Shown here: positions 18,280-21,934 of the stretch, piece by piece
How the letters are laid out: every line of letters begins with the position of its first letter
How positions within the stretch are numbered: position 1 is the stretch's first letter
NCBI RefSeq assembly: GCF_002854065.1
Contig: NZ_CP024147.1
Origin: Escherichia coli
GTDB taxonomy: Bacteria > Pseudomonadota > Gammaproteobacteria > Enterobacterales > Enterobacteriaceae
Length of the DNA: 64,000 nucleotides
Direction: 5' to 3' (one strand)
Program-made: the position numbers and the translations under genes
Notes under the pieces: generated by a model
What the model was told of the DNA's origin: nothing
Seen by the model: only the letters and a program-made list of their open reading frames with translations
Databases searched by the model: none

Positions 18280-19608
18280 ATGTCCAGAATCAATAAGTTC
18301 GTACTTACAGTCAGTCTGCTGATTTTTATCATGATTTCAGCAGTTGCCTGCGGGATCTACACTCAAATGGTAAAGGAACGGGTGTATAGCCTGAAACAGT
18401 CCGTTATTGATACTGCTTTTGCGGTGGCAAATATTGCTGAATATCGGCGTAGCGTGACAATTGATCTTATCAACACGCTAAATCCCACGGAGGAACAGCT
18501 GTTGGTTGGCTTACGCACAGCTTACGCCGACTCGGTTTCACCCTCTTATTTGTACGATGTCGGTCCTTATCTGATTTCCAGTGACGAATGTATTCAGGTA
18601 AAGGAGTTCGAGAAAAATTATTGTGCAGATATTATGCAGGTTGTGAAGTATCGACATGTCAAAAATACAGGGTTTATCTCTTTTGACGGTAAAACCTTCG
18701 TCTATTACCTCTATCCGGTAACTCACAATCGTAGTCTGATATTTTTGCTTGGTCTGGAGCGTTTTTCTTTACTGTCAAAATCGCTGGCGATGGACAGCGA
18801 GAACCTGATGTTCTCTCTGTTTAAGAACGGTAAACCGGTGACCGGTGATGAATATAATGCTAAAAACGCCATCTTCACCGTTTCGGAAGCGATGGAGCAC
18901 TTCGCCTATTTGCCGACCGGATTGTACGTATTTTCGTATAAAAAAGATGTTTATTTGCGGGTTTGTACATTGATTATTTTCTTTGCCGCATTGGTGGCAG
19001 TGATATCGGGTGCCAGTTGCCTCTATCTGGTACGCAGAGTGATTAATCGTGGTATTGCGGAGAAAGAAGCCATTATTAATAACCATTTTGAACGCGTACT
19101 GGATGGCGGGCTTTTCTTTTCGGCTGCCGATGTCAAAAAACTCTACAGTATGTATAACTCGGCGTTCCTGGACGACCTGACCAAAGCAATGGGTAGAAAA
19201 TCCTTTGACGAAGATTTAAAAGCGCTGCCGGAAAAAGGCGGTTATTTGTGCCTGTTTGACGTCGATAAATTCAAAAATATTAACGACACCTTCGGTCATT
19301 TGCTGGGCGATGAAGTGTTGATGAAAGTGGTGAAAATCCTTAAATCACAGATCCCGGTAGATAAAGGTAAAGTCTACCGCTTCGGCGGTGACGAATTTGC
19401 GGTGATTTATACGGGTGGAACGCTGGAGGAGTTGCTATCGATTCTAAAAGAAATCGTTCATTTCCAGGTGGGAAGCATTAATTTAAGCACCAGTATCGGT
19501 GTAGCGCATTCAAATGAATGTACTACCGTCGAACGCTTGAAAATGCTGGCGGATGAGCGGCTGTATAAGAGTAAGAAAAACGGCAGGGCTCAGATTAGCT
19601 GGCAGTAG
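18280..19608 (+). CDS. dgcI: Diguanylate cyclase (GGDEF domain) DgcI/YliF
   Basis: 442 aa; GGDEF motif RFGGDEFAV present. Confidence 0.85.
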
Positions 19609-19623
19609 AATTAGAATAGTGTT

Positions 19624-19647
19624 AGTACCCCTGAATCAAGGGGTACT
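19624..19647. terminator. Bidirectional terminator hairpin between convergent dgcI and antitoxin gene
   Basis: agtacccct-gaatca-aggggtact perfect stem. Confidence 0.5.
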
Positions 19648-19677
19648 AATGAATGTGGTAAATCATTTGCAAACATT

Positions 19678-20007
19678 TTACTTTGCAAAAACTTCCGGCC
19701 CTTTTATTGCCAATGTATTCAAAATACGTAGTGCCGGGCCGCTCGGTTTTATTTCATTACGTTCCCATTTCGAGACACTTTCTTTTGACATTCCCATTGT
19801 ATGTGCCAGCACGGATTGTGACATGCCGTATCGGGTGCGGATGGCTTTGATCTCTTCACCCGTCATTGATTTGACTTTGGCTATACGGGCGCTGACTTCA
19901 CGGGCTTTGACCATGACGGCAATGGCATCAACCTCACTATCAGACATCAGGCCCAGTGCATTCAGTTCCTTTGCATCTTCCAGCATCATTTGTAATTTAT
20001 CGCTCAT
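19678..20007 (-). CDS. HTH (XRE-like) antitoxin candidate, HigA2-like
   Basis: 109 aa; C-terminal motif WERNEIKPSGPALRILNTLA resembles the WExGxRxPxGxAxxLL signature of HigA2-type antitoxins; overlaps upstream gene by 11 nt. Confidence 0.6.
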   Translation of the reverse strand: MSDKLQMMLEDAKELNALGLMSDSEVDAIAVMVKAREVSARIAKVKSMTGEEIKAIRTRYGMSQSVLAHTMGMSKESVSKWERNEIKPSGPALRILNTLAIKGPEVFAK

Positions 20008-20383
20008 TTTTCACCTCAATCAAAAAGCCGGTTTCGATCAAATCCTTTATTTGCTTATTGCTAAAGGCCAGAAATGCATTTGCCATTTTTTTGTAGGCCG
20101 CCAGTTCATCATCTTCGATTTCTTTGGTTCCTTTACTGCTTAGACCACTCTTGGACCAACCATCATAAAAAAACACATGATTTGCTGATTTAAAAAAGAT
20201 AATTGTTCTGGCTCCACCACTCTTTCCTTGTTGGAGGGGTAACCGTTTTTTGATGACACCGCTACCTAAATCAGCCTCCCATATGCCTTGCATCACTTCT
20301 TCAGCGGCAGCCATGAGAACTTTATCGTGAATACCAAGTTTTTTCGTGCTTTGGCTGAATCGCCTTTCCTTATACACACCCAT
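19997..20383 (-). CDS. RelE/HigB2-like toxin candidate
   Basis: 128 aa; motif GKSGGARTIIFF resembles HigB-2 family GxxxGGxRxIxY/F; ATG with AAGGA SD; upstream of and overlapping the antitoxin. Confidence 0.55.
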   Translation of the reverse strand: MGVYKERRFSQSTKKLGIHDKVLMAAAEEVMQGIWEADLGSGVIKKRLPLQQGKSGGARTIIFFKSANHVFFYDGWSKSGLSSKGTKEIEDDELAAYKKMANAFLAFSNKQIKDLIETGFLIEVKNER

Positions 20384-20398
20384 ACATCCATCCTTGTG

Positions 20399-20424
20399 GT
20401 AATGTTTACTATAGTAAGCATTAC
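20399..20424. promoter_or_regulatory. Near-perfect 26-bp palindrome (24/26) upstream of toxin start; candidate TA operator
   Basis: gtaatgtttactatagtaagcattac lies 16-41 bp upstream of the toxin ATG. Confidence 0.45.
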
Positions 20425-20435
20425 GCTTATTTCAA
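20408..20435 (-). promoter_or_regulatory. Candidate sigma70 promoter of TA operon (-35 TTGAAA, 16-bp spacer, -10 TATAGT)
   Basis: Hexamers read on minus strand; -10 lies inside the palindrome. Confidence 0.4.
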
Positions 20436-20608
20436 GTAATTGCGATCAAAACTTTAATTTGGTGTGAAAAAGTGAGAGTTGCCTCGAGTACGATTCATTT
20501 TTCTCGATTTATGCGTCAGGGGATTTTGTGCGTAAGGGTAGGACATCGGGAAGGGTAGTATAGGCAGATCGAAGAACAATATCCTTGTTAGATCTGCCTT
20601 TAGATTAA

Positions 20609-21934
20609 TTAAACCCGGCTACCCCACAAATCATACTCATCGGCGTGCTCGACTTTCACACACAGGATATCACCCGGCTTAACGTTGGTTTCACCATTGA
20701 GATAAACCGCACCGTCGATTTCCGGTGCATCTGCCATGCTGCGACCAATCGCGCCTTCTTCGTCCACTTCGTCGATAATCACCAGAATTTCACGGCCCAC
20801 TTTCTCTTGCAGGCGCTCGGCGGAAATCTGCTGCTGCAGCTGCATGAAACGGTTCCAGCGTTCTTCTTTCACTTCTTCCGGAACCTGGTCAGGCAGGGCA
20901 TTGGCGTCTGCACCTTCAACCGGGCTGTATTTAAAGCAGCCAACGCGATCCAGACGCGCTTCTTTCAGGAAGTCGAGTAGCATCTGGAAATCTTCTTCCG
21001 TCTCGCCAGGGAAGCCGACAATAAAGGTTGAGCGTAGGGTCAGTTCCGGGCAGATTTCGCGCCACTGTTTGATGCGCGCCAGTTGGCGATCTACAGAACC
21101 CGGACGCTTCATCAGTTTGAGAATGCGCGGGCTGGCGTGCTGCAACGGAATGTCCAGATACGGCAGGATTTTGCCTTCCGCCATCAGTGGGATGACGTCG
21201 TCCACATGCGGATAAGGGTAAACGTAGTGCAGACGTGTCCAGATCCCCAGTTTCGATAACTGTTCGCACAGGCTGACCATGCTGGTTTTTACCGGCTCGC
21301 CGTTGTGGAAGCCAGTACGATGTTTAACATCAACGCCATAGGCGGAAGTATCCTGCGAGATCACCAGAATCTCTTTAACGCCCGCATCTACCAGACGTTT
21401 CGCTTCACTTAACACTTCGCCAATCGGACGGCTCACCAGGTCGCCGCGCATAGACGGAATAATGCAGAAGGTGCAGCGGTGATTACAGCCTTCAGAAATT
21501 TTCAGATAGGCATAATGACGCGGCGTCAGTTTCACACCTTGTTCTGGCACCAGGCTCAGGAATGGGTTGTGTTTCGGTTTTGGCACGTAGTGATGAACGT
21601 GCTCCAGAACCTGCTCATAGCTATGAGGCCCGGTGATTTCCAGCACTTTCGGGTGGACTTCGCGGATCTGATCTTCTTTTGCCCCCAGACAACCGGTCAC
21701 AATTACCTTGCCGTTTTCATTCAACGCTTCACCAATGGCTTCCAGTGATTCTTGTACCGCGCTGTCAATAAAGCCGCAGGTGTTGACGATCACCATGTCC
21801 GCATCGTCATAGCTCGGTACCACGTCATAACCTTCAGTGCGTAGTTCGGTGAGAATACGCTCTGAATCAACAAGGTTTTTCGGACAGCCAAGGGAAACAA
21901 AGCCGATTTTCGGCTGGGGAGTTACTTTGCTCAT
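20609..21934 (-). CDS. rimO: Ribosomal protein S12 methylthiotransferase (radical SAM MTTase)
   Basis: 441 aa; radical [11 protein letters not shown] motif and N-terminal MTTase cysteines. Confidence 0.9.

Follow-up and report, generated by a model that had tools for sequence, protein, structure and literature searches.

A toxin–antitoxin cassette between dgcI and rimO

The window, a 64-kb stretch of Escherichia coli DNA, contains a cassette of approximately 1 kb (~19609 to ~20603) located between the convergent genes dgcI (plus strand, ending at 19608) and rimO (minus strand, 21934–20609). Read along the minus strand, the cassette is composed of a hairpin 3′ of rimO, ~120 bp of sequence, a −35 hexamer, a near-perfect palindrome that includes the −10 hexamer, the motif AAGGA, open reading frames of 128 and 109 residues, and a second hairpin at 19622–19649 (Table 1). 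The two genes overlap by 11 nucleotides on the same strand with the toxin first, and this order is kept in all homologous loci. RefSeq labels their products "RelE/ParE family toxin" and "helix-turn-helix domain-containing protein", and has zero annotated features under the matched 66 bp which hold the palindrome. In K-12-like genomes, which are without the cassette, dgcI and rimO are separated by a 46-bp spacer that holds another hairpin. The cassette is present to at least 80% of its length in 1128 of 5426 complete E. coli genomes and the promoter region in 1135; the O157:H7 strains among the sampled matches carry the cassette.

Table 1 Features of the cassette with their positions in the window.
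Feature	Position	Strand	Description	Source
Hairpin	19622..19649	no strand	perfect, 11-bp stem: TTAGTACCCCT, 6-nt loop, AGGGGTACTAA; between the dgcI stop (19608) and the antitoxin gene stop (19678)	
Antitoxin gene	19678..20007	-	109 aa; C-terminal XRE-type helix-turn-helix like that of HigA-2; proposed repressor	ORF list, Pfam
Toxin gene	19997..20383	-	128 aa; PF06296 (HigB-2 family of RelE-like mRNA interferases, predicted)	ORF list, Pfam
Shine–Dalgarno sequence	20391..20395	-	AAGGA, 7 nt upstream of the toxin ATG	read from sequence
Near-perfect palindrome (proposed operator)	20399..20424	no strand	26 bp; plus strand GTAATGTTTACTATAGTAAGCATTAC; coding (minus) strand GTAATGCTTACTATAGTAAACATTAC	
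Most conserved palindrome core	20406..20417	no strand	TTACTATAGTAA; inner TAC-N4-GTA inverted repeat, holds the −10 hexamer	
−10 hexamer	20408..20413	-	TATAGT; palindrome positions 12–17	consensus scan
−35 hexamer	20430..20435	-	TTGAAA; 16-bp spacer to the −10 hexamer	consensus scan

Assignment of the gene pair to the HigBA-2 family

The toxin matches Pfam family PF06296 with an E value of 9.5e-33, residues 1–124 aligning to model positions 1–120 of 120, and has zero matching models in NCBIfam. A phmmer search of the PDB with the single toxin sequence returned nothing at E values up to 1, and HigB-2 was reached only with a family profile. The profile of 28 homologues matches the HigB-2 structures 5ja9, 5ja8, and 8a0x (E 3.4e-4), the last of which is the HigB2–HigA2 tetramer on operator DNA. 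The antitoxin contains an HTH_3 domain at residues 53–94 (E 3.4e-9), and the best PDB match of its own profile, also from 28 homologues, is HigA-2 of Vibrio cholerae (E 1.7e-12). The AF2 model of the antitoxin has a mean pLDDT of 90.2, and its top Foldseek matches are to the C-terminal domain of HigA2, with an rmsd of 1.1–1.2 Å over 60–61 aligned columns and target-normalised TM scores of 0.80–0.83. These are followed by the HigBA2 complex and by the HigB2–HigA2 tetramer on operator DNA. The family of the toxin and its profile match to HigB-2, together with the match and model of the antitoxin, identify the gene pair as a HigBA-2-family type II toxin–antitoxin module. As in other members of the family, the toxin is predicted to be a ribosome-dependent mRNA endonuclease, which the antitoxin would neutralise.

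The N-terminal half of the antitoxin is modelled as two helices (residues 3–17 and 23–41) with pLDDT of 80–96 by AF2, which often draws the bound state. The N-terminal region of a HigBA-2 antitoxin is intrinsically disordered, becomes folded upon the toxin, and contacts DNA in a fuzzy manner. The model of the E. coli half has confident helices in place of the obvious disorder of V. cholerae HigA2, and the free protein may be either ordered or disordered.

The toxin gene of strain MB53 is frameshifted and flagged as a pseudogene, and the antitoxin gene and the palindrome of this strain are intact. Several short E. coli variants of the toxin form separate protein clusters (P0009–P0051) and may be truncated forms. 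The frameshift and the short variants suggest that the toxin is inactivated recurrently. A 1198-bp contig of a metagenome-assembled genome labelled "Collinsella sp." (JAIJJM010000872.1) encodes a toxin 98% identical to that of E. coli, and most likely represents E. coli DNA mis-binned into an actinobacterial genome. Literature searches by the RefSeq protein accessions and for a study of the E. coli locus found nothing, and a search for the core motif TTACTATAGTAA found one paper, whose title is on an unrelated Salmonella topic.

A palindrome overlaps the predicted promoter

The arms of the palindrome (20399–20411 and 20412–20424) adjoin with zero spacer, and positions 7 and 20 form the only non-complementary pair of the 26-mer. 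A scan of the whole window for gapless palindromes with 13-nucleotide arms and at most one mismatch found this one alone, with a mean of 0.05 per window expected by chance from 100 dinucleotide-preserving shuffles. No further copies of the motif that could indicate a regulon are present in the 64-kb window, in which the consensus pattern and the core each match once.

The exact allele of the window is rare, with the identical 66 bp occurring in only two of the 1135 E. coli genomes in which the region is present. The common E. coli allele has C instead of G on the plus strand at 20418 (palindrome position 20), and the C is likewise mismatched with its partner. It is present in all four other genomes that were aligned, which were sampled across the ranking. 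Among the five aligned E. coli genomes, the only polymorphic positions in the site are 20418 and 20404 (positions 20 and 6 of the 26-mer). The sampled genome GmM062 is the one that differs also at 20404.

On the minus strand, TTGAAA and TATAGT separated by 16 bp agree with the sigma-70 promoter consensus at 10 of 12 positions, and are the best of three promoter-like matches in the region 19500–20800; 2.4 such matches are expected, and the promoter scan by itself is not significant. The first-pass annotation had described a 24/26 palindrome 16–41 bp upstream of the toxin ATG, overlapped by a promoter of this composition with its −10 hexamer inside the palindrome. The description holds in each of these particulars: 12 of the 13 arm pairs are complementary, the A of the ATG is at 20383 on the minus strand, and the consensus scan reads the promoter from 20435 to 20408. 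Judged from the −10 hexamer at 20413–20408, transcription is predicted to start at ~20400–20403 on the minus strand, within the promoter-distal arm of the palindrome.

Conservation of the palindrome in Enterobacterales

A scan of the representative genomes of 100,044 species with the toxin alignment provided 47 loci, and two further homologues were added by contig look-ups. The homologues from Enterobacterales, with toxin identities of 44–74%, belong to the genera Kluyvera, Siccibacter, Photorhabdus, Xenorhabdus, Proteus, Morganella, Providencia, Pantoea, Enterobacter, Pectobacterium, Pluralibacter, and Phytobacter. A first pattern search recovered the 10-bp centre of the core, TACTATAGTA, or a sequence one or two changes away from it, from 27 of 31 loci, and the remaining four loci were anchored by a looser pattern. 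This centre starts 31–42 nucleotides upstream of the toxin start codon. Anchoring on the core resulted in 28 distinct upstream sequences, the operator consensus of which is GTAat..TTACTATAgTAat.atTAC. The family consensus can be written GTA-N4-TTAC-TATA-GTAA-N4-TAC, and its distance from the start codon is fixed.

Averaged over the 26 bp, the 28 sequences have an information content of 1.26 bits per position, compared to 0.27 in the 30 nucleotides upstream and 0.33 downstream. The strongly conserved positions are GTA (1–3), TTAC (8–11), GTAA (16–19), and TAC (24–26), and both E. coli polymorphisms are at low-information positions. The symmetry of the palindrome stems from fixed bases. Compensatory covariation of the arm pairs, including the variable positions 4–7 versus 20–23, was not detected among the 28 sequences (all permutation p values at least 0.1); therefore, the outer variable bases are under zero detectable symmetric constraint.

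The −10 hexamer is retained as TATAGT or TATAAT at the same position in 25 of the 28 homologues. Conservation of the −35 hexamer is far below that of the palindrome: a sequence matching at least four of the six bases is positioned 16–18 bp upstream of the same −10 hexamer in 14 homologues, and in five more the −35 begins with TT and matches at just three. An alternative −10 hexamer, TACTAT, is located 3 bp further upstream and is paired with a TTGnnn sequence that recurs in several homologues. It scores below TATAGT or TATAAT in most loci, but could serve in some of them, and either −10 reading falls inside the palindrome. The homologues have GAGG or AGGA at the place of the Shine–Dalgarno sequence.

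The genes adjacent to the pair differ among the loci examined, being PTS and opp in K. georgiana, bssR and opp in K. sichuanensis, and dgcI and rimO in the window. The occurrence of the motif in several different neighbourhoods indicates that it travels with the gene pair.

Distant homologues and the recognition helix

Distant homologues, found in Betaproteobacteria, Rheinheimera, Geomonas, Omnitrophota, and others, have toxins with 30–39% identity and are without the enteric motif. A YAC-N3-GTR palindrome is present within 90 nucleotides upstream in 10 of 14 of them, against 0.9 of 14 expected from shuffles, and in eight of these ten it lies directly 5′ of a −10-like hexamer. The recognition helix of the antitoxin reads S-V/I-S-K-W-E-R in all 19 aligned enteric sequences, S/T-T/S/L-V/I-R/Q/S-K/Q/S-W-E in the distant ones, and R-T-L-E-N-W-E in V. 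cholerae. The operator and the recognition helix therefore appear to change together, as would be expected if the antitoxin is the binder; the homologues are phylogenetically related, and this suggested link rests on few independent events.

Four distant loci (L045, L047, and the Omnitrophica metagenome-assembled genomes L051 and L054) have two separate 9–11-bp palindromes in a layout unlike the enteric one. One copy is positioned between TTGACA and the −10 hexamer, and the second is ~28–30 bp downstream, near the ribosome-binding site.

The palindrome as a probable autorepression operator

The palindrome is very probably the operator through which a HigBA-2-type type II toxin–antitoxin operon represses itself, with the binding of the antitoxin predicted from sequence comparison. 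Autorepression of a toxin–antitoxin operon was the arrangement proposed in the first-pass annotation, and it gains support from the homology to HigBA-2, the operator of V. cholerae, the conservation of individual bases, and the palindrome of the distant homologues. A dimer of the antitoxin, by itself or within a toxin–antitoxin heterotetramer, would bind the palindrome by its C-terminal XRE helix-turn-helix domains. The −10 hexamer lies within this site, as does the likely transcription start at ~20400–20403. Occupation of the operator would exclude RNA polymerase, and the operon would thereby repress itself. Loss of the antitoxin would vacate the site and allow transcription to resume. For the E. 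coli system, we infer the binding of the antitoxin, the repression, and the start site.

The closest characterised system is higBA2 of V. cholerae (PDB 8a0w, 8a0x). V. cholerae HigB-2 belongs to PF06296, and its gene precedes that of the antitoxin (2025 survey of the RelE/ParE superfamily, PMC11980606). The higBA2 promoter has one 24-bp footprint over a 7-bp inverted repeat, which starts after the −35 hexamer and extends over the −10 hexamer; the HigA2 dimer binds this operator through helices α2 and α3, and repression by HigA2 was shown in vivo by a reporter (PMC11006873). The E. coli locus shares with it the toxin-first operon, the PF06296 toxin, and the C-terminal XRE helix-turn-helix of the antitoxin, which dimerises in HigA2 and to which the model superimposes with the rmsd given above. 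It also shares a single symmetric site of ~24–26 bp that reaches from after the −35 hexamer to past the −10 hexamer, to which binding is predicted in E. coli. By contrast, the V. cholerae operator has the 7-N5-7 format TGTACGC-N5-GCGTACA instead of GTA-N4-TTAC-TATA-GTAA-N4-TAC, and the base-contacting residues R68, E71, N72, and R77 of HigA2 correspond to E76, S79, K80, and E85 in the E. coli antitoxin. Because both the operator sequence and the base-contacting residues differ, the homology predicts the arrangement of the operator but not its sequence.

A more remote parallel is provided by HigA of Proteus vulgaris Rts1 with its operators O1 and O2 (PMC12266136). That system has a toxin-first hig-type operon, the XRE helix-turn-helix antitoxin of which represses by way of inverted repeats overlapping promoter elements. 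The E. coli pair shares the operon type, the antitoxin domain, and an inverted repeat over a promoter element, and repression is predicted for it. However, the Rts1 toxin belongs to PF05015, the antitoxin has another architecture, and the two operators are separate.

The arrangement of the E. coli locus, which is itself uncharacterised, is ordinary and expected for the HigBA-2 family, and leaves the current understanding of toxin–antitoxin regulation unchanged. It is slightly unusual in the four-triplet architecture of the site, considered below, and in the difference from the V. cholerae operator. The analysis provides a concrete candidate operator and promoter for the HigBA-2-type cassette of approximately one-fifth of complete E. 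coli genomes. The family-wide operator consensus and the correlated change of the recognition helix may be used to study how repressor–operator specificity diverges among paralogous toxin–antitoxin systems and to predict cross-talk or insulation between such systems.

One site or two adjacent units

It is possible, although we consider it the less likely organization, that the operator is composed of two adjacent 11-bp GTAA-N3-TTAC repeats (20399–20409 and 20414–20424) with centres 15 bp apart, each of which would bind one antitoxin dimer, and that the 26-bp palindrome is a by-product of their placement. Such a composite site would refine the autorepression operator and not replace it, and the probability of the one is not to be added to that of the other. 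With few exceptions, the homologues conform to GTA-N5-TAC in both 11-mers. In Pantoea allii, P. ananatis, and Providencia rustigianii, the left unit alone is retained and is extended into a 15-bp palindrome TAGTAA-N3-TTACTA; the right unit and the inner symmetry are gone from these three loci, but their toxin and antitoxin genes are intact, and the 11-bp unit may thus be the basic site. However, the loci with a single unit could be decaying.

The antitoxin MqsA binds palindromes with the sequence ACCT-N3-AGGT, which have a 4-N3-4 format. The 11-bp GTAA-N3-TTAC units share this format, although the register of binding is putative. The helix-turn-helix of the window's antitoxin is related to that of E. 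coli MqsA (PDB 3o9x): it matches the MqsA model TIGR03830 (E 1.8e-12, below the cut-off of the model), the Pfam model MqsA_antitoxin (E 5e-4), and MqsA structures. The mqsRA operon is also toxin-first. By contrast, the antitoxin of the window is without the N-terminal zinc-binding domain of MqsA, the half-site sequence is different, and MqsR belongs to toxin family PF15723 instead of PF06296.

Two further observations count against a pair of units. The YAC-N3-GTR palindromes of the distant homologues fit the orientation of the inner TAC-N4-GTA and not that of GTA-N5-TAC, and the V. cholerae prototype is a single site for one dimer. The consensus itself satisfies three symmetric readings at once, namely the 26-bp palindrome, the inner TAC-N4-GTA repeat, and the two 11-bp units. 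A more speculative proposal, which we regard as doubtful, is that the operator in the enterobacterial branch of the HigBA-2 family, unlike the single 7-N5-7 site of V. cholerae, is an array of four alternating GTA and TAC triplets (positions 1–3, 9–11, 16–18, and 24–26) with three overlapping symmetric registers, and that the antitoxin alone and the toxin–antitoxin complex use different registers or stoichiometries, with one dimer or two. If true, it would enable ratio-dependent control from a single 26-bp element.

Explanations without the antitoxin

Explanations of the palindrome other than an autorepression operator fare considerably worse. It is highly improbable that the conservation reflects only the promoter, that is the −10 hexamer and neighbouring elements, with no repressor and with incidental symmetry. 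The most invariant bases do include TATAGT, and in seven of the 28 homologues a change of G to A improves the −10 hexamer and breaks the palindrome pair 11/16. However, the −10 hexamer covers positions 12–17 only and so explains just part of the central conservation. The symmetric GTA (1–3), TTAC (8–11), and TAC (24–26) are conserved outside the −10 and −35 hexamers, to a much greater extent than the actual −35 hexamer. Promoter function alone is thus insufficient to explain the outer GTA and TAC triplets, neither of which overlaps a promoter hexamer. Furthermore, the homologous antitoxin of V. cholerae demonstrably binds such a site.

There is slightly less reason still to assume that an unrelated host regulator binds the palindrome or that it is a recombination site for insertion of the cassette. 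The cassette is indeed an insertion/deletion polymorphism, but nothing specific favours either function. The motif moves with the gene pair into other neighbourhoods and genera, it changes together with the recognition helix of the antitoxin, and it has no second copy in the window. As a junction of the cassette the palindrome can be ruled out: the insertion boundaries are at ~19609 and ~20603, and the palindrome is ~180 bp inside the latter.

The least credible explanation is a nucleic-acid hairpin, acting as a terminator or attenuator of rimO read-through on the minus strand or as an antisense terminator on the plus strand: the plus strand was called terminator-like in the scan, with 11 pairs followed by GCTTATTTCA and a predicted RNA folding energy of −12.7 kcal/mol (z −3.5), but the homologues show no conserved T-tract, the coding strand folds weakly (−7.3 kcal/mol, z −1.8) and continues with CACAAGG and no U-tract, only three of the 11 stem pairs are G–C, the inferred start at ~20400–20403 leaves most of the stem outside the mRNA, the lack of covariation among the 28 sequences argues against a hairpin, and dgcI has a strong hairpin of its own at 19622–19649. 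On the coding strand, the palindrome lacks the G+C-rich stem and the following U-tract of an intrinsic terminator.

Hairpins and repeats at the ends of the cassette

The hairpin at 19622–19649 lies inside the cassette and is missing from the K-12 empty site. Its calculated folding energy is −16.8 kcal/mol on the minus strand (z −4.8) and −19.8 kcal/mol on the plus strand (z −5.2), and it probably closes the operon by terminating transcription in both directions. At the other end of the cassette, a hairpin at 20559–20602 (−16.5 kcal/mol, without a U-tract) is positioned directly 3′ of the rimO stop codon. It replaces a different, REP-like hairpin of the K-12 empty site, and therefore the cassette brings its own sequence downstream of rimO. 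The ~120 bp upstream of the −35 hexamer contain a tandem 17-nucleotide direct repeat at 20508–20541, the copies of which (TTTATGCGTCAGGGGAT and TTTGTGCGTAAGGGTAG) are 76% identical. In E. coli strain MRY15-131, the dgcI gene beside the cassette is annotated as frameshifted.
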